Shown here one piece after another: positions 1 through 45,060 of a stretch of 64,000 nucleotides of DNA. The stretch is from the NCBI GenBank assembly GCA_008632985.1, contig QPGO01000156.1, positions 1 to 64,000 on the forward strand, in the 5' to 3' direction. This stretch comes from Psammoneis japonica. Its lineage: Eukaryota. The translations under genes were made by a program, and so were the position numbers. Each line of letters opens with the position of its first letter. Within the stretch, counting starts at the first letter, position 1. The notes beneath the pieces were generated by a model. That model had not been told where the DNA came from. It saw nothing but the letters and a program-made list of their open reading frames with translations, and did no database searches.

Positions 1-2337
1 TGTCTGACTCAGCTTGACCTTGCTGTCCTGACTTTGGCCCCAAACCTTGGGTCCAAAGATGACAAACTTGTTGCAAAACTTGCTCTGCTTGCCAACACCG
101 ACATGTTTGCCACAAACGGGGTGGATGCATCATGCACAAGGTTGTGTGTGTGAATGTCTGCCATGAACCCATTGTTGGCTGGATGTTCCTCAACCTCAGA
201 TGCCATGCAACGTGCTGCCTGCAATGACCACAGCTGCAACACAGACTTGTTTCTTGTTGGTGTTGATGATCATGCTTCATGTTGTTTGACCAACAACAAG
301 TCTGATCTTGTTTCGCCGCCAATGAAGGTTCATGTCAATGTCAAGGGCATCACTGGCAATGTGATCACCTCCTGCAAAGGAACTGTCTGCTGGAATATCC
401 AAGATGACAAGGCGAGACCCATGTCTTGCATGTCCCTGGCGTCTGATGCGTTCCCAACCTGCCAATGCAGCTGCTGTCTCTGCAACACCTGGCTCAAGCT
501 CTCAAGCAACAAGAGCACACTCATGAAGGGACTCATGCTGTTGCCACAAACAACTGCATTGTGCTTGAGTGGATGGACCAGAAATGCACGCGGTCGGTCC
601 CCTCAACAAAAGCAATGTTGGTGTCTTTTGCTCTGTCCCTTCTTTTAAGTCCCTTTGGGCACTGTGCGAAACATGCGACCATTGTCAAGACGAAAAATTT
701 TGTGCTTTCCAAGCAAACATCCCTGCACCCAAAGATGACACCCCTGACCCTGCCACTGCTTTTGCACATGCTGCTTTGCCTGATGGGGTCCAAGAGCATG
801 CCAAGTGTCACTCCAAATCGACCCATGTCCATGCTGATGAAGTCCCTGACAATGCTGCTCTTCCAAGTGACACAGCTGACACTGCTGACAACTCAACACC
901 TTTGCCAAGCACCAGTGCAGTCAATTTTAACTTTGCAGCTGATGGTTCGGATGCTGTTCCAGTCATTGAAGATGAAAACCTGTCACCCCAATGAGCCCAT
1001 CACAAGAAATGCTGTTGTGGCACTGCCAACTCGTGCACCCCCCGTTTTTGTGAATTAAATCTGTGGCATGGACTGGAGACTTGCACAAGAGACTTGTGGA
1101 GTGTCGCGTGCCCCAGTGTGCTGTGTGTTGATTCAGAAAAGTGACAAAAGCCCCTTGGAAGGTCAAAGGCAACTTTAAACAAAACAAAATGTTGAAGGCT
1201 GTGGAACCCGGTCAGTGTGTGTTGGTGGATCAGCTGGGCATGACAACACCAGACCCAGCCAGTCAGTTGAAAGGATGGGCAACAACAAAACAACACCGGC
1301 ATGCTGCCACATTTGTCGATCATTGCTCTGATCTCTCTTTTGTCTAACTGCAAACAACAACAACAACTGGGGTTGAGACTGCGGTGGCAAAGCGCGCCTT
1401 TGAAGCATGCTCGCAATCACTTGGAGTGCAAATTCATCACTGTCATGCTGACAATGGCCATTTTGCTGACAATGCGCATCTCTCTGCTGTTAAAGAAGCA
1501 AGCCAATCAACATCTTTTTGTGGAGTCAATGCTCACTTTCAAAATGACAGGGCCGAGAAGACAACACGCAACCTTCAAGATTCTGTTCAAACAGAGCTGA
1601 TGCACATGCAAAGCATCGGTGGCCAAAGGCAGTGGAAGTTGCCCTCTGGCAGTCAGTCAGGAAGCCTCTCCTGTGTTGAACTTTTTGCAAAAGCACCGGC
1701 AAAACCCAAACTTCGACATTGCAGCCCAACAAGACTGTTCCCAAGTGAGGCCCTCATTCCCGAGTTGGCTCACATGTTGGACCATCACCACAGCACTCTG
1801 GTTTGGTTGCTTTGGTGTTAAATCCAGTGACGGGCATGGTCTCTCCTCAACATCATGTGAGATTTGACAATTTGTTCAAAATGCTCAATTCTCAATGCGT
1901 GGTTGAGTCCTGCTGGCAACAGATCTGTCATTTCCATGACTCAAAAGTGCAGCCATGACTGGAAGAGACGACTGAGCAGAAAGCAACAACAACGGTCATT
2001 GCTCATCCCAGAATGGAACTTGTCACTCTCTGTGATGTTGAAATGCAAGATGTGCCTCAGGATGCGATGGTGCCAGAGGAGGTTCCTTTGGAGGAGGAAG
2101 ACATGGCAATGGAGTCAAATGAGGGAGCATCTGAAACTCCAGAACAACTGTCTGAACTGCTCATTCCTGATCCAGAGCTGCCACCAGAAGTGCAGACAAC
2201 CCAACCCGGATGCAAAATTCAGCTGACACAACGAATGATTGAGTCGGAACTGCAATGACAGGCCAGTGTAATTTCACACAAGGTTGGGTTTGATGCACTG
2301 GACCAAGACATGCACTGAGAACAGGATTTTGAGTCTG

Positions 2338-4740
2338 AACTTGATGATCCCATTGCATGTTCTGTGAAAGCATCAGCCGATCCTAATGCCATGCATCTTC
2401 ATGAGGCTGTGAGGCAACCAGATGCTGGTCAGTTCAAGGAGGCCATGATTGAGGAGGCACAGGATCATGCCATGCAACAGCACTGGGAACTGTGTGAGAA
2501 AACAGATGTGCCTGATGATGAAACCATTTTACCTGCAGTGTGGTCTGTGAGCCATGTGCACTGGTGCAAAAATCACGCAGAATTTTTGCGTAGAAAAAAT
2601 CACAAAAATCAGGGTTTGGGCCAATTTTTTTTTCTCATGCTTCTGTGCCGTGCTTCTCGGCTCCACCGATGCCTCAAGGAATTGGTTTCCCTCAAAACCA
2701 TTGACACCTCACATGATGACTTTTACATGAGTGACACTGTTCTGTGCATGAACAGTTCAAAGCTCCATTTTCAGAAATTCAATCAGCACTTCACCACACG
2801 GTTCCACCACGGTGAACATTTCCCAATGATGGAGTTTTGCCAAACTGTGGATGTTGTTGTGTTTGTCATCAAAAAGCAAGCATGCAAAGTGTCAATCATT
2901 GTGACTGAAATTGATTCCTCAAGGTTGTGGCCCATTTTTTGCAAAGCACGGGAAAAGCAGGATGAACAAGACATTCCACATGAATTTTCTGCGCAAGTTT
3001 TGCACCAGAAATTGGCCCAAACCCTGTTTTTTGGGACCCACAACCCCTGCACATGGCTTGTGAAGCACAAATGCTGAATCCACACACGCGAGATCTGTGT
3101 GGAAGAGTCGGCTCAATCTTGGAGGGCACAAGCAAATCCATGGAAAGCACTGTGACCAGACTTGTGCACCAGCTTTGTCTTGGACAATGACCCGGTTGCT
3201 CCTGTGTCTCTGTGTTGTGCATGCATGGCTGGCATTGAAGACAAGTAAATTTTGTCCTGGCATGTCCTCAAGCAGACATTCCATGACCAACCTTCATGGA
3301 GCCACCCAAAAGAGCAATGTTTCCTGGGGGATCGATGGCAACAAGCATTGTCTCCACGTTGAGAAAAACATTTGCGGTGGACATGACAGTGGACAAACTT
3401 GGTGCAAACACCTGTGATCTGGATTGTTGCAAATCGGATTCACAGTTTCCAAGTGCAATGGGAGTGTGCATTTTACAAGAGAGCAACAGTCTCATTGGTG
3501 TGCACTGATGATTGCCCAATCTTTGACAAGGAGTCTGCTCACAACATTGACAAGGTCACCAAGTTAATGCAAACCACATGATTTGATGTGGAAGATGAAG
3601 GAACACAAGTGATGAATGCCATGGAGTCAAGATTCAGAAGGAGAGCAACCGCTGTCACTTGGCTCAGCCTCATCTTGTCAACAGCATCCTCATTGATCTT
3701 GGCCTTGTCAACAAAGACGGCTCTCCAAAGAAAGGTGCAACTGCCAGAGATTTCCAAGCCAAACTTGATGATCCCATCACTTGCTCCTTGAAGGCCTCTG
3801 CTGACCCGGATGCTGTGCACGTGCATGAAGCCATGAAGCAGCCAGATGCAGCACAGTTCAAGGAGGCTGTGGTCAAGGAGATGCAGGACCACACCACTTG
3901 CAAGCATTGGGAGTTGTGTGAGAAAGCTGGTGTCCCCGATGACAAGACTGTCTTGCCGGCAGTGTGGTTGATGAAGTGCAAGTGCCAAATTCACACACCC
4001 AAAGTCTGCAAGTGGAAGAGTTGACTCAATCTGGATGGGCACAAGCAGATTCCTGGAAAACACCATGACCAGACTCATGTGCAAGCTTTGTCATGGACAA
4101 CAATTTGTTTGTTTCTGCATCACTGTGTTGTGCATGGCTGGCATTCAAGACAAGTCAATTTTGTCCTTGCGCACCCACAAGCAGACATTCCACAACCTGC
4201 CTTCTCATGGAACTGCCCAAGGGAGTGACTTTCCCCCGCATTGGCATCTCCAAGCAAGGTGTGCTGGAAGTGTGGGTCAGCCGGCACCAGTGTTGCTGGG
4301 CAAAGGTGCAACAGCACTTAAAATTGGGTTTGTTTTTTTGTGTTGAGAAGAACATCTGCAGCGGACATGACAATGGACAAACTTGGTTGTGCGAAAACAC
4401 CTTAGAGCCGGATCATTGCAACTTGGATTTGTTCCATTGGAGTGCAATGAGTGCATCTTCCATGAGGGATCAACAGTCCCACTGGTCTGCACAGATGATT
4501 GTCTCATCTTTGATGAAGAGTCTGCGGCCAACATTGACAAGGTTGTCAAGTTGATGCAAACCACATTTGATGTGGAGGATGAAGGAACCATTGATGAGCA
4601 CCTGGGAGTCAAGATTCAGAGGGAGAAGGACCGATGTCACTTGGCCCAGCCCCACCACATCAACAGCATCCTTGTTGATCTTGGACTTGTCAATGAAGAT
4701 GGCACACCCAAGAAAGCAGTGACCACCAGAGAGCTTCCAG
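2338..4740 (+). repeat. Tandem duplication of the RT segment (about 2338-3760 versus 3761-4740)
   Basis: Both units begin AACTTGATGATCCCAT and run colinearly through the CTDD and AQPH..NSIL..LGLVN motifs. Confidence 0.85.
2550..3058. mobile_element. MITE (509 bp) inserted in the first RT copy
   Basis: Perfect 11-bp TIR AGCCATGTGCA...TGCACATGGCT, 4-bp TSD TGTG (2546-2549 and 3059-3062), subterminal inverted blocks (CAGGGTTTGGGCCAATTT / AAATTGGCCCAAACCCTG). Removing it restores colinearity with the second RT copy. Confidence 0.88.
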
Positions 4741-6476
4741 CTCTCACTGCAAAGCTCATTGGACCTGACTTTGATGGAGACAAATTTGACTGTGATTTTG
4801 ACTGCCGATCCGTCATGGGCAAAGCAAACTTCCTTGAGAAGTCCACTTGCCCTGGTGTCACGTGTGCAACTCATCAACTAGCTTGGTTCACGGCCAATCC
4901 AAAGCAATCCCATGGTGCAGCTCTTAAACACCTCAGTTGGCACCTGCCATTGATGCATGACAAAGGCCACTGCATTCAGACCCCACCTGATGGCACCAAG
5001 AGCTTTGAGTGCCATGTGGGTGCTGATTTCTGTGGCAATTGGGACAAAACAATCATGGCAGAGAATCCCAACACAGCAAAGTCTCGCGGCGGCTGTGTTG
5101 TCAAGCATGGAGGAGCCCCTCTCCATTGGTCATCAAAGCCACAAACTCAATTTGCTCTCAGCAGCAGTGAGAGTGAGCATTTGGCCCTGTCAGCTGTCAC
5201 CAGACACGTCAAGGTGTCTGTGCATCTGTTGGAAGAAGTCAACAAACTTCACTGCCCAGTGACAACCACGCCCACAGTTTTTTGCAAGCTTTTTGAGGAC
5301 AACTCTGCAGCACTCGAAATGGGCAAGGCACCCAAGATGAGGCCCAGGACGTGCCACATTGACAATGTCTGTCACCACTTCCATTCAGAGGTTGCCAATG
5401 GACGCTTGCTGATTGAACCATCGGTGAGTGTGTGGAGGAGAGGTTCTGACTTTAACAACAGCATCATGTCAACGGCTGCAAGAGGCAAGGGCGTCATGAC
5501 TCATGGCATGAACGTGGGAAAGTTGGCGGCATTGCCACTTTAGCGTCGCAGCGACCTCGATGGGATGTGTTTTCACACAAAACCGCGACAGTGCACACAC
5601 ACTCCCGTGGACCGTAACACATTGTAGCTGGCACACAGACAGATTTCTATGCGATTTCTATGCACCTCATACAAATCATGCAGCGAGCCCTGCCAGCACA
5701 AAATGTCTGCCCTCCAACCCAATGTGAAGTGTCGCGGCTGATGATTTTCATTCTCTCAATTTCGGGAAACTCGGTGCAAGGAGGAGTCGACACCGCATCT
5801 GCAGTGGCCCTGGGACTGAAGTCAAAAGCTTGTCAAAAGGACATCTGCAAGATGACAGAACAAACAAAGAGCTGAGCCCAGCGTCAAAGAATCACAACGA
5901 AGCTGTCAAAAGACACCAGCTCGATTCCGAGGTGACGGTGACCAGATGCAAAAAATCGACACTGCTCATCGAATGGAGTGCACTGTGTAACGAAACCCCA
6001 GCCAGTCGCACGCTACTTTGCACCTCCGACAAGAACAGCATGAGACATGTAGTTTGCCTGGGTCTGGAGGCCACCACGTACACCAGAACTCAGAACCGTG
6101 GGAGGTCTTCTCTGTCTTCTTCCGTACCACTTACAGACCTCCCAGTTGGGAGTGGTACATAAGATTCCGTTCCGGCAAAGAGTGCTCGCTATTTTTCTAC
6201 GAGGGAGGGTCCGTACATTTCTACGTGTGCTGAGAGCACCATCTTGCGCTGTGACGACTCGCGCAAATCTGCGCCATAATGATTGACGTAAGGATCCTAC
6301 AGGGACGAAATCAGCCACGAAAAAGCACGCAAAAAATCCCAAGGCCAACCAGGGCAACACTGGAGCACACAAACATTGCCATTGAAGTTTAGACCAGTCT
6401 GTTTGCATAGAGCTAAGCTTCTCCGCAGTAACTCAACACTCAAGGCATACATACTCTCCATAAAGGACCCTCTTGA

Positions 6477-13914: not shown

Positions 13915-16470
13915 AACATCGCCACAAATTGCCGCAGAAAAAAATGTGTCCTTCTTCTCTGTGTTGTCAAAAAAATTGGCAGCCATCACTTTTGCCCCAG
14001 GCAAGAAAATCCTGGACAAATCACAGCAGACTTTTAGCAAGTTTTGTGCATCACATGTGTTTCAATCAAGACACCCAGCATGCAAGTGTTGGCAGGTGGT
14101 GTCCTTCAATCTCCTCTGAGACAACAACACAGGAGATTTGTGCTGAAGAAAAACATGTGCACACTCAAGTGAGTTTCCGAACTTTTTTTTTAGAGACAAG
14201 GGAGAGCCATGCAGCTGTGCCAGAAGACTGCTCTTTTTGTGCTGTCTGAGCTTGGGTTTGATGCAGGGAATCTCCTGTGTGAACAAACAAGACAGCAGGA
14301 GCAACACCCGCCATTCACAATGGCTGCCATGTCAGTCAGAGGCCAGCAAAAGAATTCTGCCACAACTGCACAATGGCACAGGCAAAGGGTGGCAGGATGC
14401 ACCAAACTTGTTTTGAAAGCAAGTGTTTTTTGTAAACATGAGTCACCACACTTTTTTGATGTTCAACAGGCAGGCCCTGCGGCTTGGAAACTCATCCTGA
14501 CATGGAAGTTTCTGACAAACTGAGTCTGTTGGTCAACCAACAACAGAGCGCCAATGCCAATCAGCCTCTTTTCTCAGCATTCTCAGCATGGACTTTTTTA
14601 GCTCCACTGGCTCCAAATCAGAGCCCCCTGTGAAATGTGAAAAAAGAGCTGCAGTCACACAAATGATGACACCATCTGGAAAGAATGCACAATCTTGCTT
14701 TGGATTGAGCATTGCAGTGTTTTTGTTTTTCACTTGACAACTTGCACATCTTGCTTTCTCACACTCAAGCTGGTTGAACAAGGTTTGCTTTCCAGCACTC
14801 AATGACTCAAAGATGTGGAAACATCAGTGTTCTCAACATGATTGTCGTGCACAGTCATTGCAGACAAGAAGTGCACTCAAGCCAGATTGTGGCAATGTGT
14901 TGTTGTTGTTGTCATCATTGGCATTGTTGTTGTTCATTGATGTGTCAACATGCTTTCTGGCAAAGCTTGCGGTGGGGTCACATGGCGCCAAATGTTCCCC
15001 ATCAAAGATCTTGAAAAAATCATCCTGGCTGGTGTTTTGGAGCAACAGAAACCAACAACAATCATTGCTGTGCAAACAACATGCCCAATCAGGACATGGA
15101 GTGGATGTTTGCTCTGTCATCTTTTCAAGGGAGCCTTCAAGGACAGCATTCTTCTCAGAAAATTTCTTGCCACAAAGCAAGAAATGAGGATGGGTTCTTT
15201 CAGGCTTGGGGACACAAGTGCATCGAAAAGTCTTTTGATGTTTGCATGGTGATGTCTGCAAATGCTGGCAATCCTCTGTGCCCCAGCAAAGAGTTGAATT
15301 GGCATGAAAGAGTCACACCCAGCGCCACCCTCCTTGATGCATCACTTCTGGTGCTTTTCTGGCACATTCTTCCAAGCAAAAAATGAGGTCTTCTGGCACA
15401 TTCTTCCAAGCAAAAAATGAGGTCTTCTGGCACATTCTTCCAAGCAAAAAATGAGGTCGTGTCAAGCATCTTGTGGCTCTCTTCTGGAACATCTTTGACA
15501 GCTCTCAACAAAGTGCTGGAAAAGGACAGTGGCAGTGTGGGTGGAACAGATGCTGCTCAGCTGAACACCGCCGCCAATGCAGTGTCTCAGCAGTTTGTCA
15601 AGAAAAGCATGAAACCAGGTGTCTGTGGGTTTGAGTCCTGAGCAACCAGCTTGAGTTCATTTTCACTTGTGTTGATTTCTTGGAGCTGCTTGGGCCCTTG
15701 TCAAGAAACTGTCATGCCAATGGCACCAGGAAGAAAGAACAAGAGAAACTGGGGTTGGGGCTGAGCTTTGCGATGATGTTGTTTTTGCTTGACAACTTGC
15801 GTGCCTTGTTCACTTTCCTGCACATGAGCTGATTAAGCAGGGTCAACATTTCAGCATTTGGCAGGCCCAAGAATGGAGACAATCACCTTGACATCGCCAA
15901 TGTGATCGTGAGCAGTCATTGTGGAAAAGAAACAATGTGTTGTTGCTGTGAGCCAGACTTGGTTGTGTTTTCCCAGACTGCTGCATGCTCCCTCAAAGCA
16001 CTCAACATGAAGCCTGTCTTTTCTCAAACAATCAATCATGAAATGTGCTCCTGGTGCCTTTGGTGCCCGCACAACACGCTTCTTGGATGTCCTCCCTTGA
16101 AGCCCTCTTCACAGGCTCTGTCGCCATTGTGAGCACATCATGTTGAGAGTGCTTGGGGTTGGCCAATGATCGTGATGATGAAGAAAAAACCTCTGGTCCC
16201 ATCACCATGAGCACATGTCGAGAGCACTTGGGAGATTGTGGCCTGCGACCGCGGCATTGACAAAGGGAGTTGGTGGGTGGTGTGTTTTTGCCCCACAGGA
16301 GCATGACCACTCACATCAGACAGGCGAGGCATGAGTGTGGACACGATGCATGGTGTTTGTTGAGACAGCAATGTGTCCTTGTCAAATTTTCACAGTTGTT
16401 GAGTGGTGGGCCTCCGAGTCTCACACGCCATGGTGCGGTGTGCTTTTCTGGTCTGTGCTCTTTGTGCTTT
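13915..16470. mobile_element. TpA-depleted decayed repeat block, probable transposon relic of unassigned family
   Basis: Near absence of TA, only Cys/His-rich ORF fragments, same signature as the Copia block; no family motif recognised. Confidence 0.5.
15357..15458. repeat. Three perfect tandem copies of a 34-bp unit
   Basis: TTCTGGCACATTCTTCCAAGCAAAAAATGAGGTC at 15357, 15391 and 15425, with no spacers. Confidence 0.95.
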
Positions 16471-16731
16471 CTGTGCGAGAAGATAGAAGTGTCGATCTAC
16501 AAATCTGCGTACGATGGACGGACGGACTTGGGTTGTTTTTTGTTTTTTCATTCATTCGAATTCATTCACATCGAACTCCACCCACACAACTTCTGCCCAG
16601 GCAGGATAATATCTTGGATCTGCCTGCACTGTCCATGTCAACGCAAGTGAAAACACGAGCGTTCTCTCTTGATCCGGGCATTTCCAATCATAATTCATTC
16701 GTCTCGCACTGAAAAATAAAAGAGAGACATC

Positions 16732-23580: not shown

Positions 23581-24076
23581 GACATTCCCATGGAATCTGA
23601 CGTAGGGATGAAAATAGGGAGAAAATGATCATTCTTTATCGAACTTTATTGTCATGATTTTCTCCTGGCTCGACAGCAAGCTTACGCGAGGGATACTATG
23701 CGCACCGTTGGTAATATGTATGCACGCTTCGTCTGGTGTGTTCTCTTGGTTTGGGATAAAGAACGTTCTCCAACGACGCCAAACGATGTTTGGGAGCGGC
23801 TTTCAAAACGCATCTCGATTGAGTCGTGGTTCACGAATCATGTTTGAAAAATGTCAGAAACGGTTCAGAAATGATCAGTTGCAAATTCTGGGCTCTTCGC
23901 CGAAACGATTGAATTTCGCTCGGCATTTGCTGTCATAAAACACAAAACTTCTCTTCTGACAAGCATTGAGCAACATGAAGACGTGCAACATCAGCTTCCC
24001 GGTTCCGACGTCTCCCATCACACGACGGAAGCGTGTTGAGTCTCCAGCGGCGGATGCGAGAAGCGAGCGGTAAAAG

Positions 24077-25644
24077 ATGGACAAGAGCACCTCACCAGGA
24101 TTAGACTTTGAGGGTAAACGTGCGGCGATCCCGATCGTGGAGTTGGAGAAGCGGAAGATCGACGTTGCCAAAGCTGGTATCCCTACACCCGAGCTTCTTC
24201 AGGAAGCGACGTTGAGCGTCAACGCGCCGAGATTCCGACAGAGGACTCGAAGATGCGGAAGCTTGATGGTAACGAGGCCGGTAAGAAGACTGTCGAACTT
24301 TCTGCTGGTAACGACACCAAGCGCAAACCAGTTGAGATCCCGAAGGCGGATTCGAAGAAGAGCGCTGCCAACAATGGAGGGACAAATGCCACGACATTTG
24401 AGTTATCACCAGGACTCAACATTGAGCGTTTGAGGCTGCATGGAGACTTCAATGCTCTATTAAAGCTGGTAGAAAAGGTGAAGGCGCTTAGGAATGACAT
24501 CAAAAGGTTTCCGTCAACAACGCACCCTACGGTAATCTACAACAACAGCGAAATGGAGCCACGGCAGATCATCAACGCTGTTTCACGTATGCGTTCGCTA
24601 GTTCTGAACGAAGCCTCTGCTACGATACCAAGAGGAAGTGATATACTTCTCGATTCGCTGATCAACGAAGCATTTGACGTATTGCAGAAAGAGGTAGACC
24701 GCTGTGAAGCAATCAGAGTTGCTAACTGTCCCAAGCCACCTCCCCAAGACCTAAAGGAGAAGGCTCAGCCGAGCAAACGAAAATTACTTACCATGCCTCC
24801 GAACCCTGGTAGCCAGCAGTCGAGAAAGAAGTCGAGAATGAGCGACAGCGGATTGAGCCGTCCGACCCCCCAGGTTTCCGCCAACATGAGAGAGAGGCGT
24901 CGAGATAGTGAAGCGCTCGAGGATTTCGGACAAACAAACGCCTTGCTTAAAGGAACGAAAAAGGTGTATCATCCCGCAAGCGCTCGCGGTTACTATGGTA
25001 ACCCCGTCTCCTTTCACTCGCCGCCTACCAACGAACGCTGCAAGCCGGGATCACGAACCGGCCAGTACTTGTACCAAAAGGAACCATCCTTTATTCCTGG
25101 TCATCACGGGAAGGCTCCTGTTAGAGGCACGTCCAACTCTCACCCATTGCCAGGATTTGGTGTCCGTCAAATCCATTCAAGCGGTCACGGTCAGCTGAAA
25201 AAGTTTCCCTATGCTCGTGAGGCATACGAGCACTACCAGAATTCACTTGTCGATCCAAAACATTTCGAGCAATGGAAAAGTACAGCCACCACACCTCGTA
25301 TTCGGAATGCTCGGAATGGATCTTCGAAGAAAGCCAAGCCAGCTCTGATGAGGCCTAAATCGTGGAATAAGCGTCCTATGACAGGCGAGCCGAACTCGGA
25401 TGTGCGTATCAATCTAGTCGGAACGAACCAAAACTCCGGAAACTTTCACATGCCGAGTTCTCGACGTGAAACCGTTGCCACCAATCGCCCTAGGACGTTT
25501 TGGAATCAGAGCAAAATTAGCCAGCGATTGCACGCGCCGGAAATCGTCGAGGTGGAAGAATCAGATAGTGACGATGAAGTGATCGTTGTTGGTGTCACTA
25601 AGCCGATGGGTCGAAACCAGGGGTCTCACGTCCTCAAAAAGTGA
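24077..25644 (+). CDS. Hypothetical, largely disordered protein; start uncertain, likely frameshift near 24250
   Basis: 463-aa ORF plus an overlapping upstream ORF; no domain recognised. Confidence 0.5.
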
Positions 25645-26345
25645 ACGATTAAATCCACTCTTGATCGCAAGACGCTCGACCAAACATATCTCATTAATGT
25701 CTTTAAGTAAAATAAACAACGGAAAACGATTCTTGTATTAGCTGATGTCTCTTTCGAAGACGTTGTGACAGCAACAATGTTTTTGAGGGCGAGACCAAAG
25801 CAACTACCACCGTCCAACTAACTTGTCTCTAGCACCAGCAGTCTCCGCTTTACGAGCTAATCATGCTTCCAGATCCTCTCTAGAAAACGACTTATCATTC
25901 CAACTTCGTGACGATAAAAGGAACACGATCAATTTGTGGAGGTTGAATCCTGAATAATCGCGTTCCCTCGAACGGTATTTTGCATGAATCATGACCTGCT
26001 GTGAGATGCAAGAGGGATCCAGGATCAAACGCTCAATTCGAGTTTCGAGTCACTAAGTTGATGGCGACGAACAAAGCGGCCCGCTGGCAACGAGATGGCG
26101 GAACGCTTCTCTCTCTACTCTCAACACATACGAGTAGTACAGAACACTCGGCGAGGATTGGAGGTGACGAAATCGAACAAAGGTTGAGGAAGATCCAAGA
26201 CCTCCCACAACAAAAAAGGCGAAACGGAACTGCCTGAAGCTCGCGTATCGGTATGTGCAACTGCGTGTGGGTCCTTTCCGAAGTGGGTTGTTCCGTGCAA
26301 TGCAAGAAAAGCCACTCCACTACCTGCTGCTGAAAGACTTCGACT

Positions 26346-27278
26346 TCATACTTGCCTGTTCTCTGCTGGAACTCGAATCAACATTTTCAAGAACCTCTCT
26401 GTCCTCTCGCCAACTTCGTTTTCATGCAAGGCATATTCTGTTGTCTCCAAATCAAAAACTCCATCAAGGGCTTTTTTCTTCAACCAGTCTCGAAATTGAG
26501 GCAAAGCCTCTCGATGTTCCGGTGGTAAGGGTGAAACGAAAATGATAGTCTTACAGCCATTTGCACCATCAACAAGGATTTCGATTGCTCGGTAAAAATG
26601 AGGCAGATCATCAGGGAAGTAAACTACGTCACTTCCAACCACCAAATCCGGTTGAAACGAATCTCGTGCTTTCACCACAGTCTCTGGCTTGAAGAAGTCT
26701 AGTCTTTGTATACTTGCGTTTTTCTTTTCATCGTATACGTTGTATGCCAAATTGACTCTGTGCCACTTCTCGGGTATAAGTCGCTTTTCATCAAATTCAT
26801 CACCCTCTTCATACCAAAAGTCTGTCGCCAAGACAGCGCGAGCGTGAAGAACATCCCGAAACACCACGGATGGCAAACCCACACCGGCACCCAATTCCAT
26901 TACCCTCTTGTTTCGGATATTCTCGGCAATGCTGTCCATACACAATACCAAACTACTTGGCCAAACTGTGTATCCAAGTTTGCTGCAGCTGAACGACGTT
27001 CGACGGACCGTGACGCAACTAGATGCACCTTCAAAGAAAAACGTTTTTAGTGCCGTTGGATACCATTCTGCCACTTCGTCGTCATGGTCATTAGAAAGCT
27101 GAGGCTCCAACTCATAGCATTTTCCAACAATGTCGTCACTCTTGGTGAGAATGTAGGTGCTGATGATTGGTCGACTAAATGTTGGCATAGTTGGAACGGA
27201 AAAAGCCGAAACATCATGGCAGTTCGGAGAAGCAACGATCAGCAGAATCATAGCATGCCGTATCCATTGGAGTATCAT
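26346..27278 (-). CDS. Methyltransf_16-type (METTL21-like) SAM-dependent protein methyltransferase, probably plastid-targeted
   Basis: GYTVWPSSLVL, VMELGAGVGLPS, VVGSDVVY; signal peptide followed by VSAF. Confidence 0.85.
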   Translation of the reverse strand: MILQWIRHAMILLIVASPNCHDVSAFSVPTMPTFSRPIISTYILTKSDDIVGKCYELEPQLSNDHDDEVAEWYPTALKTFFFEGASSCVTVRRTSFSCSKLGYTVWPSSLVLCMDSIAENIRNKRVMELGAGVGLPSVVFRDVLHARAVLATDFWYEEGDEFDEKRLIPEKWHRVNLAYNVYDEKKNASIQRLDFFKPETVVKARDSFQPDLVVGSDVVYFPDDLPHFYRAIEILVDGANGCKTIIFVSPLPPEHREALPQFRDWLKKKALDGVFDLETTEYALHENEVGERTERFLKMLIRVPAENRQV

Positions 27279-27960
27279 AGCCAGACTATTCCAAACACCG
27301 CTTCACTCTCTAGAGCAGGATCAGCACTCAAAACACAAAAAAATAACGAGCAGGAGACGACGACCGCAGACACAGACAACATACGCAAGTCGGATCTTGG
27401 CATCCCGTCCCTGCCTGACTTGCGACGTTGTGTTTTTTGTCCGCCGAATGACGAATGAACCAGAACGCCGACCTGATTGAGTGAGTCGTGTTTGAGATCA
27501 TTGTGCGATCAAATCAGTACGGCATGTCTTGTGTACATAACATTTCCTCCCTGTGCAGCTCAGGGGATGACATTACAAACAGACAACTGTTACGTAGGGC
27601 CCTAAAGGACGAGCTCGTCGTACGGGTGGTGATGTGATGTTGCTTGCTTGGTGTGGAATAGAATGGCAAGTGGACGCCTCTTTTTTCTCATTCCGCTTTT
27701 TTTCTCATTTCAAAGGACTGGCCATGCACCATTGAAGTGATTTCCACGTGACTGGAGTGGTCTTGCACGACAACAGTTGTGCAGTTCTGTTGCGCTTTTC
27801 TGCCTGTCTACCTGTGTCTGAATCTCGAAGTGTAATTGCTCTTGGTTGTCAGTGCTTTTGTTGTTTGCGTCATTTTGTTTCACTTGTTTTCCAGTCGACT
27901 GTGTCACAGTTGGTTTCTGCATTGTGTGTTCTTTGAGACATGAAAACTGCTTCGACCTTT

Positions 27961-30290
27961 TTAGTTGACTTCCTTCTTTTCATCGATGGATCTAGGGTCG
28001 AGAATGGCCTTGGGCCCTTGGATCATTTCTTCAAAGTGCTCAGGCTGGACGGAGCACACGCGAAACTTCTCGGTGGGAATGAATCCATTGAAAGAGCTGG
28101 CTGCTGCAATGGTGCAAGCTCCCATGTTGTTCACACAGAGAAAGTTGCCGACCTTGAGCTTTGGCAGCAACATGGAGCGTGCCACCACATCGATCGAATC
28201 GCAGGCAGGACCAAAGAGAGTCGACATGAACAACTTGCGTTCTTCGCTGTTGCTTTCGATCAAGGGATCACCACCCGAGTCCAGACGCTTGAACCCGTTC
28301 TCGGTCTTGACACCAGGGGCATCTTCCGTGAGGTGAAGAACGCGTGGACGAACGGTTGCATGGTCAAACATGATGTTGTTGAAGGCACCGTGCACTCCAT
28401 CATTGACGTGACAGGCGCAATCGTCTTGCAAAGGAGCAGAATCGGCGACTGCTTGCAACATGACACCGTTGACTGCGGCTTCACCGGCAGCAGCCAATGT
28501 CAACAAGGCGGAAGTTTCTAGAGGAGCTTCCTCTTCCGAGTTTGCAGCTGCTTCGGCCACCAAAGGACAGTTCATGCCTTCCACCGTGTGAGCCGCAGCC
28601 TTCATTTGCTCCGCATCTGGAGGTCCCAGCTGATCTAGAGTGCTTTCCAATCCCTCCTTGTAGAGATCCAAATTGTCGGTGTAAACAACAACTTCTTGCT
28701 GAGCCAGTTGCTGACTCACAAAAAGCTTGTTGCAATCCTCGATCGTGTCCATCATGGAGTGCAGGAGCTGATCGTTTTCCAAGATGTTGATGGCTCCCAC
28801 AGAAGATTCGCGTCTGTGGTGGTGCACCAACGCCTTTTCTTCCTCACGGGTCATGTCACCCAAAGTGGCGGCAGCCTCCTTGTTGTTGATGGGTTCTGCC
28901 ACGAACAAAGAATCAACCTCATTGCTTCGAATGGTGACCACTGATGTGCACAAGGTCGCAGCTGCTGCCACAAAGTGCCTCCCGGGTTCGCCAATCACCT
29001 TTGCAACAGACTCAACAGGGAAGAGACGATCTGCGACTGGGGACACCTGTTCAGTGATTTCCTTGAAGAACATAAAACGGTCGTCATCGCAGTCATCTTC
29101 CCCAGACTTTCCTTCGTTGTTGCTCTTGTCATCCTTGTCAATTTTGACAGCAGGATTCCAAATGGAGTGGGTCTCTCCGGGGAAGCCAACACCAACATCC
29201 AAGATCTTCACGCGCATGCCATGCTCGCGTTCGGCCATGTCAAAGATTTCACAAGCATCCTTCAGCGCTGATTCGCATCCAGAGGCATCGCGACATCCAG
29301 AGCCAACCTGAAATGACACTCCGGCAACATTGAGGCCACATCGCTTGGCCACAGCCAAAAGAGGATGCCACTTGTGTTGTGGTGCACCAAACTTGCTGCT
29401 GAGACGACATTGACTTCCACGGTCGTCGGCGATGATTCGCAAAATCAGTTCAATCTTTTTGCTGACTGCTGCACATTTTTCCACTTCAGCAATGTTGTCA
29501 AAAGTGACCATGTGAACTCCACGGCAAACAGCCTGTGAAAAGGACAACCGTGAGAGATGCAAACCATCATGTGATGGGACAGAACTCGAGCCATTCTTGT
29601 TTGACCCACCTCGATGAGATGAGCCCGGGCTTTGCAGGGGTTGGCATAGATGACATCAGGTGTGCAACCAGGAAGACCTTGAGTGATCTGTTGTGCCAAT
29701 CAAGTTTCATTTCTCAAGGCACAGTCGAAGTTGCAGCCCAAAATCGCAAGCGTCTGAGAGGATGTGGCAAGATAAAAAGATTCACAAAGCGAAACGAAGT
29801 CAAAAGTTAAAAGCTGGACTCACCTTGATGATGACCGGATCAGGGCTGCATTTGACTGCATAGAAGGGCTCAATCCGTGGTGGAAGAAGTGGCGCCCTGT
29901 TGAAATGCAGCAAAATGGGTGAGTGAGCGACAGTGTCTTCCGAAGGCGCGCATCGCTCTCCGCTGCAGTGGACTTACATTGACAGACCTGTGAGACGACC
30001 ACACCCAAATCGACCACGTAAAATGCATCTTCCATTGGTGTTTGTTGGTCTCCGATCAGCTCCAAGTCCTTGGGACCCAGCAACAACAAGTGCGACGGCT
30101 TGTTGGTCATGGACGATCGCTCGTTCAAGTGGCAACTGGCCGCCTTGTTCAGACCCTTTCCAATGGAGCTTCCTCCTAAAAACACATCTGCTTCTTTCAA
30201 CACATCACTCAAGATGCCTGAAGCTTGTTCGCTGTCAATTTCATGAAACGACAAAGACCGTCCGGGCCTTCCCATGTCAATGAACATGTT
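27961..30290 (-). pseudogene. ODC: Ornithine/diaminopimelate-family decarboxylase (ODC-like), intron-containing and heavily TpA-mutated
   Basis: AFYVVDLG, PFYAVKC (PLP lysine), IYANPCK, TFDN, SKFGA, GVSFQVGSG, EPGRHF, CHVNDGVHGAFN, GPACDSID, NMGACT; an in-frame stop and an insertion near 29530-29700; intron donors GTAAGT and GTGAGT visible on the minus strand. Confidence 0.88.
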
Positions 30291-30471
30291 TCCTTCCACA
30301 AGGATCGACAGGAGCAGGCGATCGTCACCACGCACCCTCAACCTTGTCTTTTTTGTTTTTGGCCGTTGCCACTGGCAGGTTGGCCGTTGGCCGATTCTGA
30401 GTTCACTCTCGCCACTCGCCACTCTCAACTCGCCACCGCCGCAAATCTCCGTACATGAGGAGTCGTGGATC

Positions 30472-31251
30472 ATCTGTCACGACGAAAGTTGTGAAAACCG
30501 ATTCTCAAGAATCATCCGGGTGCCGATTCTTAAGAATCTGATTTCCGTTGAACGCAAAATTCGAGCTCGACGTGCGTGCTCAACGGAGATTCACAAGTTC
30601 CGCCGTCCTGTTTTCTTAAGAATCGAAGTTCGATTCTTGAGAACAGCTGTTACTGATTCTTATGAAAACTCTTAATATATCATTCATTCACTAATTTAAA
30701 AATATAACGTCACGTATATTTAATCATAAAAGAATGGATGTGAATATGAAGCGATTTTCGTACCGACTTCGAAGCTGTGAACGACAATGGCGGCTTCGAC
30801 GCAAGAAGCGACACCATTCAAGACATTGCGATAAATACTTCAACCTTATTCGATAGTACTTAGTTTATAACACTTGTGAGAGTCTTGCTGTGCTTTGAAA
30901 GCCGCTCTGGAGTCGAAAAAACCGTCAAAACACTCGTGCGCCGATGTTGTTGTTATGCTCTTTCGACCGAAAAAGCAATGAAGAAGTCAATTCTTCTCAG
31001 ATTTTTCGATTCATTAACATGTAAGCTATTAAGATACAATATATGGTTGATTGTTGGGACTGTTGATTGACTTCTCGTCGACAATGATCGCCATTTTGAC
31101 TTTGGATTCATGTGACAGATTTTTCACAAGAATTCCCTTTTCACAAGATTCCAATTCGTGGCACGAGCTCCGATTCTCAAGAATCGATTTTCACAAGATT
31201 CGGTCTCCGATTCTCAAGAATCGTCGATTCTCAAGAATCGTCGTAACAGAT
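30472..31251. mobile_element. MITE-like element (about 780 bp) with palindromic subterminal repeats
   Basis: TIR ATCTGTCACGACGA versus reverse complement ATCTGTTACGACGA (13/14 match); several GATTCT(CA/TA/TG)AGAATC units near both ends; AT-rich core; no clear TSD. Confidence 0.72.
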
Positions 31252-31259
31252 CCACATTG

Positions 31260-33050
31260 TGTCCATCTATCTGTCTGTGTCCACGTGGAATCTTCGTCCC
31301 GCCACGATGGATCACTTTGTCAAAGCTTGCAGCTCAACAACAGTCGCGCGCCACAAATGTTGCAAGGCCTGACTCAGTTCTCATTGGCAGAGGATTGATT
31401 TTTGAGAACTTGGCAACTTCTCCGGTGCACCAGGCAGCATGGATTCTCACGCTGGTGCAAGTTGTCTGGTGGTGGTGCAAGCCACTGATTGTGGCCCGGA
31501 CAGTTCACAATTTTAGTCAGCTGTGTTTCTGTCAAAGGCTTTTGACCAAAAACACTGCGTTGCTGCTTGGCAGTGCAGAGTGTCCAACAGCCCTCTTGTC
31601 TTAGGTGTCATCTTGGAGTGGACATCCAAGTGATGCATTGGAAGATGCGCAAAGAAGAATCTGCTGCGAACCAACATGCGTGAGGAGCTTCGGGCACACG
31701 CTGAACTGGCCTCGTGCACTGGGTGATGCCCCTGACCCCAATTTCACCCCAGATTGACAAAACATGTGAAACACCCCTGTTTTGTAAAATGCTCTGACTG
31801 CAAACAGTGGCTTGAGTTGTCATGGTGCTTTCGACAGTTGAGCAGCTTTTGCTGTTTTTGCACATCATTCAAATGTGTCGCACACTGAAAGTGAGTGTTC
31901 ACTTCCAGGTTTTTCTGGTTTTGATCTTCCATCAACCATGACCAACAAGTGCACGACAAATGCCTGCTGCATGGGATTCCATGTAAAATGCAGGGCAATG
32001 GGCCAAACTGCATGTTTCGCATGACAACATTTCATGCCCCCGGCCTGTTCCAGCTCCAGGTGATGTGCAGAGGTTCAGTTTCCACCCCCCTGGCCTGTTT
32101 CAGCTCCAGGTGATGCACAGAGGTTCAACTCCCATCAAGAGAATGATGGTTGATTTTGGCACACCAAAGAAGCCCAACTCTGTGAGTCTGCTTGTGCAAA
32201 CTTCACACACGTGTGTGACAGCTGCTGCTCTGACTCACAGGACATGCACACAACCACAGCTTTTGAGCTTGGAGCCTTTTTTCTTTTCAACACAGATGTC
32301 ACAAAGAAAGTGGTGGCATTGTTTGCTCACCCTCGTGTGTCTTTTTTGTGTTTTGCCTCCAAACAGGAGCTCTGCGGCCTGTCCTGCACATTTCTGGCAC
32401 ATGGCATGTGGCACTGACATGAAAAAAATGATGGCTCTTTGAAATTGCCGCCCACCACACAAGTCATTGCACAAAAAGATTGATGTGCTTGATCTTGTTT
32501 GTCATTGTCTTGTCTCTTGTGAATGTCGCTGCACAGCATCCAACATGTGTTCCCACCAAATGATGCAGAGTTGTGTCAGCACAGAAAGCTCCAACAAAAA
32601 GGGTTCAAGAAAGGTGCAAGAGACTCTCTGAGCAGCCCTGATGTTGGATGAGCTGTGTCACCACATCCATGGAATCAATGAAAGAAGCAAAACTTAACAG
32701 CAAGTTGAAAAGATCCAACCATGTTTGCCTTGATGAAGTTTGATTCAAGCACTCCAGTGGACAACTCATTTACACCCAGACTTGTTTTGCATTGGCACTC
32801 AAGAGGAGGCTTGAGAAGAAACACACAACAAGCCTTGTCTGACATGCTTGGTGTGCAGGCACTCAAAAACTTGTTCAAGAAGTGCAAGCCTTGCACGAGT
32901 CGTTGCTGTTGTTTTCAACAGAAAAAGTTTGGTTTGGTGTTTGACAGCATTTTGGCTATCTGCCAAATTGTGACAAGAGCATCACGACCCAGACAGACTC
33001 TGCCATTGCGTCCATTGCCAATGCGACACCCATGCTTCGGGTCCGGGGCA
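31260..33050. mobile_element. TpA-depleted decayed block of unassigned origin, with a 50-bp-period direct repeat at about 32038-32128
   Basis: Composition; duplicated GGCCTGTTYCAGCTCCAGGTGATG(TG/CA)CAGAGGTTCA. Confidence 0.45.
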
Positions 33051-33580
33051 TGATTTCTTCACTCACGTACCCCAAGAAAAATCTCGACGAAGCTTTGGCT
33101 TCGTTGACATCCAAATGCTCGACTTGGAGAAATCAAGATGGGGCTCATTTGTCCAATGCACCAGACTCAGTCATGATGGGAATGAAACTGATCGACAAAA
33201 TGAGGGTGACATTGGGCTGACGTGGTGGGCAATGGAACACAAAAGCACATCGGACTGCCGCCGATGCTCCTTTCAGCTACAATAATTAAATGAGCTAGTT
33301 TTCCCTGGCATCATAACATCAAGTTGTTCAAAGAACACTACATGACGAATTCTGCCTCCTCTGGAGAGCAAAACGTACGTGGACATAAAGGCCTGACGCC
33401 ATTGATCTACGATTCTTGTAACGTCGAAACAAGCGAGACCTTTTGGTGGGATGTACCTCTGTAAAACATGTAGCAAGAATGAAATGGGAAGTGACATGCC
33501 TCCCGACTTCTTCTCAGGTACTTTGGCCTGCCGTGATCTTGTCAATGTGAATTAATACATCCGTCAACTTAGGAGGCTCT

Positions 33581-42599: not shown

Positions 42600-45060
42600 C
42601 GACGGAGCACAGGAACTGGAAGGTCCAAGCCCAAAGGACAATCTGTGATGGTCGGCATTGGTGATGATGTGAGTGCACTTGATGTTGAGGTCATGGCACT
42701 CAGTTGCAACACAGTCGTGAGTGCACATTGGAATCAGCAGGTGACAGTGACTGACGAGGACTGTCTGTTGGATCTGGCAACGAGGAAGGCAAACTCGATG
42801 TTGTGGTGCAGAACTCGGCCACAACACCATTGTGGGAGCATTGGAGGAGTTGATGGGTGCCAGGGACAGCTGCAGGTCATTGGATGGTGCTGGGGACAAT
42901 GAAGGTAAACTCGATGTGGAGGGCACAGCACTTGGCCACAATGCGGTCATGGGTGCATTGGAGTCGACAGGTGCCAATGACAGCCAGGACTGTCAGTCAG
43001 TGCCAGCAACAAGGAAAGCAAAATGTGTGTCAATGGCACTGCACTTGGCTGCAGCAGTCATGGGTGAATTGGAATGGCTGGTGCCTGTGACACTTGAGGA
43101 CTCTCCAGCACATCAGCAATGGGGAGACAATGAAGGTGAGCACCAACGTTCTTGAGGGCACCAGAGTGCCTCCTGTCACACTCAGAGCTGCAGTGCATGG
43201 TCATGGATGCATTGGTGCTGGTTTGCCCATGGAAGCTGATGAGTGCTTTTTGTCAGCACTGGCAACAGCAATGGCATGCTTGAGATCAAGCGCGATGCAC
43301 TTCTTGACATCAAGATGCTCACAGGGGCACCAAATGTGTTGGAAGGTGCCTTTTTGATGCCTGGGGTTTTTGGTTGGTGGCGCAAGTGACAATGACAGTG
43401 CATTTGACATTGAGGGCATCACACTTGGCCTCAATGACAAGGTGGTCATTGTGGGGACTGTGGAAGTCAAAAGCAACTGCGATGGTTGAGGGCTGACAGC
43501 CCGCAATGCTGGCTGCATGTTGGTGCAGCCAACTTGGCCTGGGCGAAGCCAACTCAGCATCAATGCAGCAGCAAGTCTGTTGGACATGGGTGGAGGTGTC
43601 AACATTGACAAACTCTCAGAAGGGACATTTGCAGCTGTGATCGTTTGCACTGGGCATTGTGGAATGCACAGGTGTGGTTGGTGCTGTTGCAAGTTGCAGT
43701 GGCATCAGCTCACATTCTTGGACAAACCCAGAAACAGCACTTTTTTGTGTTTGAGGTGCTGGGGGAGATGTGCTGGCAGATGGACTTGCTTGCTTGCTTG
43801 TCAGGAGGGGCGCCACCAGCACCAGTTTGTTGTGTTGTTGTGTTGAAAGAAGCTGCTGATGCTGCAGGAGCCAGTGTCCTCATGGCAGAAAAAGGAGCCT
43901 CCAATGACATGCAGCAGGGTGCGTGAGAACTTGTGGGCACTTGCAATGTTGTTGGAGTGCCAGACATCACAGGCAGCACCAACGGGCATGCCAACAAATT
44001 AGCACAGGTGGCATGGAAAGAGCCGCTGGTGTGCAAACAATGTCTGGGGTTTCCTGGGCATGCAGCATCAGCTTCAAAAAAGGTGGTGCTTCCCACCAGG
44101 CCATTTTTTTGTAACAACAACAATGCAGAGGAGCAGAGAGAACATCAAGTCAGAGTGGAGTCATCAAAGCAAGAAAACAACAACCATGAGAAAAGCTTCC
44201 ACCCCAGCGGCCGCCTTGAAAGATGACACTTCACCCGTTGTCTCTGCTCATCACAACAGACACAATCTCCTGACGCTGCTAAAAAAAGAGGCTCTTTGAA
44301 TGCAGCTGTTTCTTTTCATGGGGGTGACTCTTGAGTGCTGGTGAAGTGCTCCCCATTGGCAAAAATGCAAGTGCCACTGGTGTTTGCACATTTGAGAGAG
44401 AGATCATCATCTCTTGTTGTTGCCAAGGTGGTGAAAAACATTGTCTGCAAAAATGTTGCCAACCAAATTTTCATCAAAGGGCACCAAGTCATCATCAATT
44501 TAAGGTGGCCAAATGTCAGAAATGCCAAAGTGGCATCAGGACAGAGCAAAAATGATGAGCTCTTGAATGCCTCAGTTGAGTTGGTGCGAGCACCAGCCTT
44601 GATGTTGTCTCTGGGAGGGTGCAAAGGTTGGTTCATCCAGGGAAGGTGGTGGCATCATCTGGCTGCAACTGTTTCACAAAGGCAGGTTCCATCTTTGTCT
44701 CATTTGAGTTGGTGCGAGCAGCTTTCATGTTTTCTCTTTGCGCGCAAAGGTTGGGGGTCATCCAGCCAGGAGGAGGGGTGGCCTTGTCACTCTCACAAGG
44801 CAACTGGGCTGAGGAAGCTGACAATGTGAGTGGCAGCAGCCAAAATTCACAATGACAGCAATGGCAGAAACTCTCGCTGCTGGGGTTTTGCTCTCAAGGT
44901 CCTTGTGCGGCTGACTCTGCTGGGGGGGTCTCTGTCTTGACTCGTCTGTCACAGAGAACACTGAGCAACACCTGCCTCTTCCTTTCCCACACACAAGGAC
45001 TGACAATGGCAGCTTCAGTCCCACTCTCTCTCAAGACATCATGTCTAAAGGTGTGCCATC
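42600..45060 (-). pseudogene. TpA-depleted relic of a Pro/Ser/Thr-repeat, probably single-pass, host-type protein gene
   Basis: Minus-strand fragments such as APVDSNAPMTALWPSAVPSTSSLPSLSPAPS recur; hydrophobic stretch near 44110-44190; no intact frame. Confidence 0.45.

Follow-up and report, generated by a model that had tools for sequence, protein, structure and literature searches.

Fungal repeat-induced point mutation (RIP) replaces C by T, for the most part at CpA, whereby TpA arises; it is a local, dinucleotide-specific transition hypermutation that ruins repeats and sometimes ordinary genes. Our literature search found hypermutation specific to TpA described only in a preprint on the chlorarachniophyte Bigelowiella natans, and in no report on a diatom; the preprint's supplements, which lay outside the search, may hold data on extended context. 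Mutation-accumulation lines of B. natans yielded 231 mutations in two viral inserts; 230 of them, every one at TpA, were A>G or T>C (bioRxiv 10.64898/2026.01.13.699255). The larger of the two inserts is transcriptionally silent, and an ADAT2-like deaminase has been proposed (Mettrop et al, bioRxiv 10.64898/2026.01.13.699255). TadA-type editing acts on an A that follows U and precedes C (UACG core), with Tyr-to-Cys and Thr-to-Ala outcomes (PMC11472039), and amphioxus ADAT2 has been reported to deaminate both A and C in DNA (PMC10354150). The diatom Phaeodactylum tricornutum, when it has lost DNMT5a, shows depleted methylation and de-repressed young transposable elements (TEs) (PMC9998398). Here we analyse a gene-dense stretch of 64,000 nt from the diatom Psammoneis japonica (assembly GCA_008632985.1, contig QPGO01000156.1, positions 1 to 64000; hereafter the window), which contains a decayed copy of an ornithine decarboxylase (ODC) gene that has lost most of its TpA dinucleotides. 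An earlier note, made from the letters alone, had described positions 27961-30290 as a host ODC copy hit by the same process as TE sequence.

We consider it probable that the locus is a pseudogenised genomic ODC gene lying in a repeat-bearing domain, across which silent chromatin directed TpA transitions and deamination of 5-methylcytosine (5mC) separately removed CpG. Both domains of ODC, a group IV PLP decarboxylase, are present in the open reading frame (ORF) flagged there (PF02784, E 2.2e-32; PF00278, E 6.3e-13). Its top matches are ODCs from Bacillariaceae, and the 323 protein homologues found at E<=1e-5, among them the ODC of Nitzschia inconspicua, reach an identity of 75% at most. Three full-length diatom ODC homologues are colinear with the locus in tblastn searches. 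Together, Pfam, tblastn and the gene model place the pseudogene on the minus strand at 27961-30275, with four exons deduced from tblastn and the minus-strand sequence (30275-29978, 29896-29824, 29753-29610 and 29532-27961) and three introns (29977-29897, 29823-29754 and 29609-29533), all of them GT..AG. Since these introns are retained, the locus represents a genomic ODC copy and not a retrocopy, in agreement with the earlier note.

Two lesions disable the reading frame. An in-frame TGA at codon 141 (29700-29702, minus strand) stands where 16 of 16 near homologues carry arginine, a CpG-type change from CGA. Exon 2 measures 73 nt, whereas a frame consistent with the homologues requires 71; skipping 2 nt near 29881-29882 is the sole way to obtain a coding sequence that is both divisible by three and colinear with the homologues. 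A +2-nt frame break is thus annotated at 29881-29882 on the minus strand, its exact placement within CCACCAC being arbitrary. Because of the TGA and the two extra nucleotides, the ODC reading frame is not intact, and the copy is, as judged from its sequence, an ODC-derived pseudogene rather than an enzyme.

The active site has also been altered. In human ODC we take it to comprise K69, H197, G235-237, E274, R277, D332, C360 and Y389. An alignment with human ODC (7s3f) shows His197 replaced by Gln (SFHVGSG to SFQVGSG), Gly236, the middle glycine of GGGFPG, by Val (GVGFPG), Tyr278 by His (EPGRY to EPGRH), Thr359 by Ala (GPTCD to GPACD), and Tyr389 by Cys (GAYT to GACT), while the Lys of FYAVKC, the Asp of NDG and the Cys of CD are kept. 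All four motif lesions that had been read from the letters, EPGRHF, CHVNDGVHG, NMGACT and GPACD, are indeed in the sequence. The last of them does lie across a codon boundary as proposed, being a change from T|ACC to T|GCC, although the resulting codon is GCC and not GCG.

The most conspicuous property of the copy is its lack of TpA. Positions 27961-30290 have a TA observed/expected ratio (o/e) of 0.10 and a CG o/e of 0.72, compared with 0.33-0.68 and 0.84-1.14, respectively, in the 19 host ORFs of the window, and with a TA o/e of 0.50 and 0.56 in the ORFs that neighbour the ODC domain. TG and CA are raised in the same region (o/e 1.45 and 1.46), so that, unlike in RIP, TpA is lost while CpA and TpG are gained, and no RIP signature is found. 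Compared with the Poisson expectation from local TA rates, the exons contain 11 TA instead of 67.2 (P 2.5e-17) and the introns 3 instead of 10.7 (P 0.006); the 3' flank has 2 TA against 14.1 expected and the 5' flank 1 against 9.5. Since the non-coding parts are depleted as well, selection on codons is ruled out. This bears on the idea that the locus is a divergent, functional ODC paralogue and owes its low TA to codon or mRNA-stability selection. Such a paralogue would suit the open last exon of 564 codons and the fact that the TA o/e of host ORFs goes as low as 0.33, but a long open frame is to be expected where TAA and TAG have been erased, and the TGA, the frame break and the loss of the residues aligned to His197, Gly236 and Tyr389 speak against an enzyme. 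The data contradict this explanation, and we give it next to no chance.

Depletion of TpA is mirrored in the encoded amino acids. The spliced product would contain 5 Tyr, 24 Cys and 21 His, as compared with 16-22, 9-15 and 8-14 in the 12 homologues listed. We defined conserved columns by at least 75% agreement among 16 near homologues, which yielded 436 columns. Of the 15 conserved columns with tyrosine, 3 retain it, compared with 361 of the 421 columns for other residues (Fisher P 5e-8); the changed tyrosines became Cys in 7 of the 12 columns, His in 4 and Arg in 1. When each homologue was left out in turn as a control, 15 of the 16 had no conserved Tyr changed, and the remaining one had changed two, both to Phe. 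The homologues treated in this way differ at 1.5-8.0% of the conserved columns, the ODC copy at 72 of 436 (16.5%).

For each of these 72 columns we deduced the smallest nucleotide change, choosing the ancestral codon in favour of pyrimidine-purine (YpR) classes where synonymous codons permitted; Tyr codons are unambiguous. The resulting 76 changes comprise 14 TA>TG, 8 TA>CA, 15 CG>CA, 8 CG>TG and 31 others. Across the 436 conserved columns, with directions taken from the orthologues, 22 changes fall in TA context and 7 are A>G or T>C outside TA. These counts, together with those of the Tyr columns, bear out the TpA-specific damage to ODC motifs proposed in the earlier note. A YpR-type change is found in 43 of the 72 columns, and the remaining 29 (6.7%) lie within the range of the leave-one-out homologues; thus, the excess damage consists essentially of transitions at TpA and CpG. 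The copy resembles unprocessed (duplicated or unitary) pseudogenes in its retained introns and flanks, its premature stop and its frame break. It differs from them in that its excess damage is almost wholly of the YpR transition type, the other differences (29/436) being no more than those of a working orthologue. Only one of the 12 changed Tyr columns carries a double hit from TA to CG (Tyr to Arg, TAC to CGC). Their rarity is to be expected if the first hit abolishes the TpA motif for the other strand. Replenishment of CpG through them was considered and is minor, given this single case.

The two kinds of TpA transition also bear on how the damage arose. The occurrence of both TA>TG (14) and TA>CA (8) on the coding strand, together with the depletion of introns and flanks, shows, at the level of sequence, a two-strand process acting on DNA, and about 80% of TpA across the domain has turned into TpG or CpA, both strands being affected, when the TA o/e of host ORFs is taken as reference. 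Alternatively, an ODC transcript might have undergone A-to-I hyperediting before being reverse transcribed and inserted as an edited retrocopy; ADAR-type editing favours a 5' U (cited in bioRxiv 10.64898/2026.01.13.699255), as this explanation would ask. Yet neither the absence of introns nor the one-strand damage that mark a processed pseudogene was found: TA depletion affects the 3' flank, the promoter side and all three introns, none of which is missing, both transition types occur, and the TA-poor domain extends into another gene, which lies on the other strand. An edited retrocopy is therefore contradicted by the data and deserves hardly any credence.

CpG has not escaped decay in the ODC copy. 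The earlier note had held it to be largely spared, which is not what we find: its CG o/e of 0.72 lies under that of all 19 host ORFs, and ~23 of the 76 deduced changes are CpG to TpG or CpA, including the one that turned CGA into the stop. The related statement that CG is still abundant is correct relative to the Copia-like block at the start of the window (CG o/e ~0.2-0.4) and incorrect relative to any host ORF. The two losses differ in extent, CpG having lost about one quarter (as estimated from o/e) and TpA about four fifths.

The ODC copy is part of a larger TA-poor domain of 5.6 kb (27660-33277; TA o/e 0.05-0.10), which is interrupted by an insertion resembling a miniature inverted-repeat transposable element (MITE) at 30479-31277. 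TA positions and a 300-bp profile show that its edges are sharp to ~100-200 bp, and both 500-bp and 300-bp profiles show such local, sharp-edged TA-poor domains amid otherwise normal DNA in the window. Two host-type genes of divergent orientation make up the domain, together with a multi-copy repeat that separates them; ODC is read from the minus strand and a PF06962 methylase-like gene from the plus strand, and the 3' ends of both decayed genes lie near the edges of the domain. Nested inside it is a CpG-poor core of 1.3 kb (31558-32890; CG o/e 0.23), while CG o/e is 0.74 in the ODC unit and in 32891-33277, and TA o/e stays at 0.05-0.10 throughout. This nested core is, on sequence grounds, the best evidence that TpA and CpG were lost through separate processes, as the earlier note had proposed, and that these differ in reach. 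CpG decay to TpG and CpA in the core and in the TE blocks resembles 5mC deamination as it affects diatom TEs. Removal of TpA, in contrast, is beyond the chemistry of 5mC deamination, and the CpG footprint is much narrower than the TA-poor domain. Elsewhere in the window, 600 bp at 59301-59900 contain no TA at normal CpG (27 CG) and edge a TA- and CG-poor block at 59900-64000; they form a second case in which TpA loss outreaches CpG loss, and the ORFs there have no Pfam match.

The second host-type gene of the domain is a decayed fragment of the PF06962 type (putative rRNA methylase) at 32761-33253 (plus strand), in which the frame changes and is broken by in-frame stops. PF06962 is matched over 32945-33217 (E 2.1e-8), the tblastn alignments over 32761-33253 pass through the stops and the frame change, and 30 homologues of 140-865 aa are found at E<=1e-3. 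With ODC and this gene both decayed in the domain, the proposal that non-TE sequence can be affected is upheld. Foreign or selfish DNA as the target would suit the TE blocks (weak RVT_2 matches in the first block); the two decayed genes are of host type, but adjoin a multi-copy repeat.

Two repeats lie between the divergent genes. The MITE-like multi-copy insertion (30479-31277) is situated ~200 bp upstream of the ODC ATG, belongs to a direct repeat family (D1) and carries a near-palindromic 19-nt motif at its ends, in two copies and three copies. Its summed depth is 620-840 compared with ~50 in contigs from a public sequencing run (X1), in which the joint from 30478 to 31278 is also seen. With a TA o/e of 0.48 and a CG o/e of 1.62 it is not hypermutated. 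The MITE looks younger than the TpA damage, because its TA content is normal and the reads hold a second version of the locus that lacks it. For the same reasons, and given its CG content, it is a poor candidate for the silencer that the earlier note had suggested it might be. A better candidate for silencing is the multi-copy repeat at ~31510-32140, set apart from the MITE by a short spacer, a TE fragment of unknown class that is both TA- and CpG-poor and for which Pfam returned no match. In run X1 the bin 31510-32176 has a summed depth of 471, and many loose ends occur at 32042-32137.

The signature of the ODC domain recurs in seven TA-poor blocks of the window, which total 20.6 kb and have a TA o/e of ~0.03-0.10. 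Among the 86 TAs that survive in the blocks, 49 stand in YTAR and 3 in RTAY, compared with 294 and 533 of 1667 elsewhere in the window (chi-square P 7e-20). TTAA is the best-kept context: it accounts for 22 of the 86 but for 4.4% of the TAs of normal DNA, and ATAC/GTAT has no survivor in the TA-poor blocks. Among the 17 TAs left in the ODC domain the ranking is the same (6 YTAR, 10 mixed and 1 RTAY), and this shared bias sustains the view that one process acted on the ODC copy and on the TE blocks. Pfam searches with 91 ORFs of the TA-poor blocks gave only the PF06962 fragment and weak RVT_2 matches at 3064-3414 and 4371-5540 (block 1-5500), and self-BLAST found no dispersed TE copy pairs in the window, only the internal repeats of the first block. 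That Copia-like block has an internal duplication (2338-3750 and 3762-4732, ~69-76% identity). Between its internal repeats, the double difference seen most often is CA opposite TG, with 33 cases as compared with 7 for the runner-up; thus, YpR sites were resolved independently, in place, after the duplication. Blocks 1-5500, 14001-16500, 42600-45000 and 59500-64000 contain many long stop-free frames on both strands, as is to be expected where TAA and TAG have been lost. Also in the window, a tandem duplication of ~120 nt (57388-57626, 90% identity) lies at the end of an ORF containing BRCT and zf-PARP domains.

The context of the changed sites bears on the chemistry that may be involved. A pyrimidine precedes the codon in 6 of the 7 Tyr-to-Cys changes, and a purine in 3 of the 4 Tyr-to-His changes. 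These data favour a change of A in 5'-T-A-Y-3' or, just as well, a change of T in R-T-A on the opposite strand; both readings apply because TpA is palindromic. Among strand-symmetrised products in the blocks, TGY/RCA is enriched 1.63-fold and TGR/YCA 1.38-fold, a comparison confounded by CpG decay; RTG and YTG show no difference. In some protists, modified thymines prefer TpA. It is conceivable, then, that T in 5'-R-T-A-3' was enzymatically modified (e.g. hydroxymethylated) and mispaired with G. Such a thymine fits the dinucleotide data and the context bias as well as a deaminated A does: a T>C change reads as A>G in the complementary strand, and both leave the same footprint because TpA is its own reverse complement. 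On the other side, the intrinsic U-A-C(G) context described for TadA-type deaminases, with Tyr-to-Cys and Thr-to-Ala outcomes, matches T-A-Y (PMC11472039). We came across no sign of a modified thymine in diatoms, although no search was aimed at it, and regard this chemistry as quite improbable. The likeness to TadA/ADAT enzymes is that the changed A follows T and precedes C, with the same two amino acid outcomes (PMC11472039). The locus departs from them in that T at +1 serves as well as C, and in that the putative substrate is kilobases of chromosomal DNA.

Public reads support the assembled sequence. Run X1, which comes from the same organism, contains 85% of the 31-mers sampled from 24001-33500; one contig of 2073 nt built from its k-mers is identical to positions 27104-29176, and another to 31606-33500, each with 0 differences and 0 gaps. 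X1 is possibly the assembly's own source, so that it excludes a consensus error and adds no independent sample. Systematic miscalls at modified bases are possible in some long-read consensus sequences, and true TA might accordingly have been misread at modified bases during base calling or assembly. The identity of the k-mer-built contigs and the shared 31-mers contradict such an artefact, whose probability we judge to be very small. No RNA run was among those matched to 24001-33500, and run X2, which appears RNA-like from its spliced GT..AG joints over a neighbouring gene, gives no cover in the bins of 27508-30175; this is not evidence of silence.

Run X1 also contains a second ODC version, ~86% identical to the first and present at a depth of 35 compared with 33.7, while collapsed contigs have depths of 45-57. 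It is colinear with the window over 27567-27924 (358 nt; 51 differences, 13 gaps) and 28051-29176 (1126 nt; 162 differences, 7 gaps). Homology ends near 27567, and the first 113 nt of its contig match nothing in the window. Upstream, a MITE-less version at depth 32.1 runs on past 31278. A protein search with the ODC copy gave no match above 75% identity, so the second version is not among the proteins of that collection. It should correspond to the other haplotype or else to a paralogue, and it has otherwise diverged or been mutated independently. A joint from 27517 to 33068, which skips 5550 nt, is seen in X1 as well (depth 25.1; shorter side 40 letters). We do not rely on it as a haplotype without the domain, as its ends lie off the TA-poor edges and share GTAC microhomology. 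In the non-coding stretch 25632-26128, a second version at haplotype depth shows 31 differences and 44 gap letters in ~390 nt, while the coding neighbours differ by ~1%; this suggests two strongly diverged haplotypes.

The second version raises the question of a duplication trigger. In a RIP-like process, a two-gene segmental duplicate of ~4.8 kb would have been recognised through its homologous copy elsewhere. The colinear second ODC version with its end of homology near 27567, the MITE-less version that continues past 31278 and the joint decay of two adjacent host genes are all in keeping with such a trigger. Haplotype-like depths of 33.7 and 35, however, suit two alleles as well as paralogues, and the main target in B. 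natans is single-copy according to the preprint (bioRxiv 10.64898/2026.01.13.699255). Taken together, we consider a duplication trigger unlikely, although worth keeping in view.

Our preferred explanation, a silent-chromatin-directed process, would proceed as follows. A repeat inserted between two host genes may have been the starting point of silent chromatin, which then extended across the two transcription units. This chromatin would then have served as the substrate for a DNA-level, TpA-directed transition process of the B. natans kind. Its likeliest chemistry would be enzymatic deamination of adenine in 5'-T-A-Y-3', which turns A into inosine that is read as G, and the first hit would destroy the TpA motif of the other strand, keeping double hits from TA to CG rare. 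Deamination of 5mC, centred on the repeat, would have taken out CpG separately, and the MITE presumably inserted after the damage.

The comparison with B. natans supports this proposal in several respects. In both, TpA is changed to TpG and CpA on both strands within sharply bounded local domains, and TE-type sequences belong to the TA-poor set; the agent proposed there is an ADAT2/TadA-like adenine deaminase (bioRxiv 10.64898/2026.01.13.699255). There are also differences. B. natans is a rhizarian and the lineage studied here is a stramenopile diatom. Loss of TpA is nearly saturated here (TA o/e 0.03-0.10), as opposed to a Rho of 0.45 in the B. natans viral insert. Intron-bearing host genes are affected here. 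An extended bias of RTAY over YTAR is found here; the main text of the preprint, in which neither 'context' nor 'trinucleotide' appears, says nothing of diatoms or of sequence context other than the dinucleotide. Finally, the process was measured directly in mutation-accumulation lines there and is read from its footprint here.

Several observations weigh against the explanation that we prefer. C>T changes are essentially absent in B. natans, and the preprint's account of it includes no CpG component, whereas CpG decay accompanies TpA loss here. At most other TE block edges of the window, the TA and CG boundaries agree within ~200 bp; a wide flank that is poor in TA alone is therefore not the rule. 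Silencing and its spread across the ODC domain are steps that we infer. The 162 differences in 1126 nt are ~3 times the number roughly estimated for hypermutation of one copy (~48), so that an unmutated allele would not by itself account for the second version. Both the TGA and the frame break fall outside the zero-difference contig 27104-29176. The directions of change rest on orthologous proteins of at most 75% identity and not on ancestral DNA, and the choice of ancestral codons inflates the cross-codon YpR counts, although not the Tyr counts.

Compared with what has been described in B. natans, three features of this locus would be new, as far as they can be read from the sequence: the damage to host genes, a footprint that extends beyond that of CpG decay, and the T-A-Y/RTAY preference. 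A TpA footprint at saturation in a diatom suggests that a second mutational genome defence, besides fungal RIP, is widespread, as diatoms are ecologically dominant and belong to a different branch of their supergroup than the chlorarachniophytes. The TpA process appears not to be confined to foreign DNA and to be able to destroy intron-bearing host genes that lie beside a repeat. It also poses a risk for annotation: since TAA and TAG vanish in such domains, long spurious ORFs arise there, whose Tyr-poor, Cys- and His-rich 'proteins' could be mistaken for divergent paralogues.

More tentatively, and with a good chance of being wrong, we suggest that diatoms possess a chromatin-targeted DNA adenine deaminase of TadA/ADAT ancestry, specific for 5'-T-A-Y-3', which erases TpA over whole silenced transcription units of any origin and acts alongside cytosine methylation, with a wider reach. 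The T-A-Y/RTAY context is the kind of constraint that could identify this enzyme. If this is true, the defence would be ancient and common to the SAR supergroup (stramenopiles, alveolates and Rhizaria), because the same footprint has been measured in a rhizarian, and a repeat that lands between two host genes could irreversibly destroy both, possibly on one allele only.

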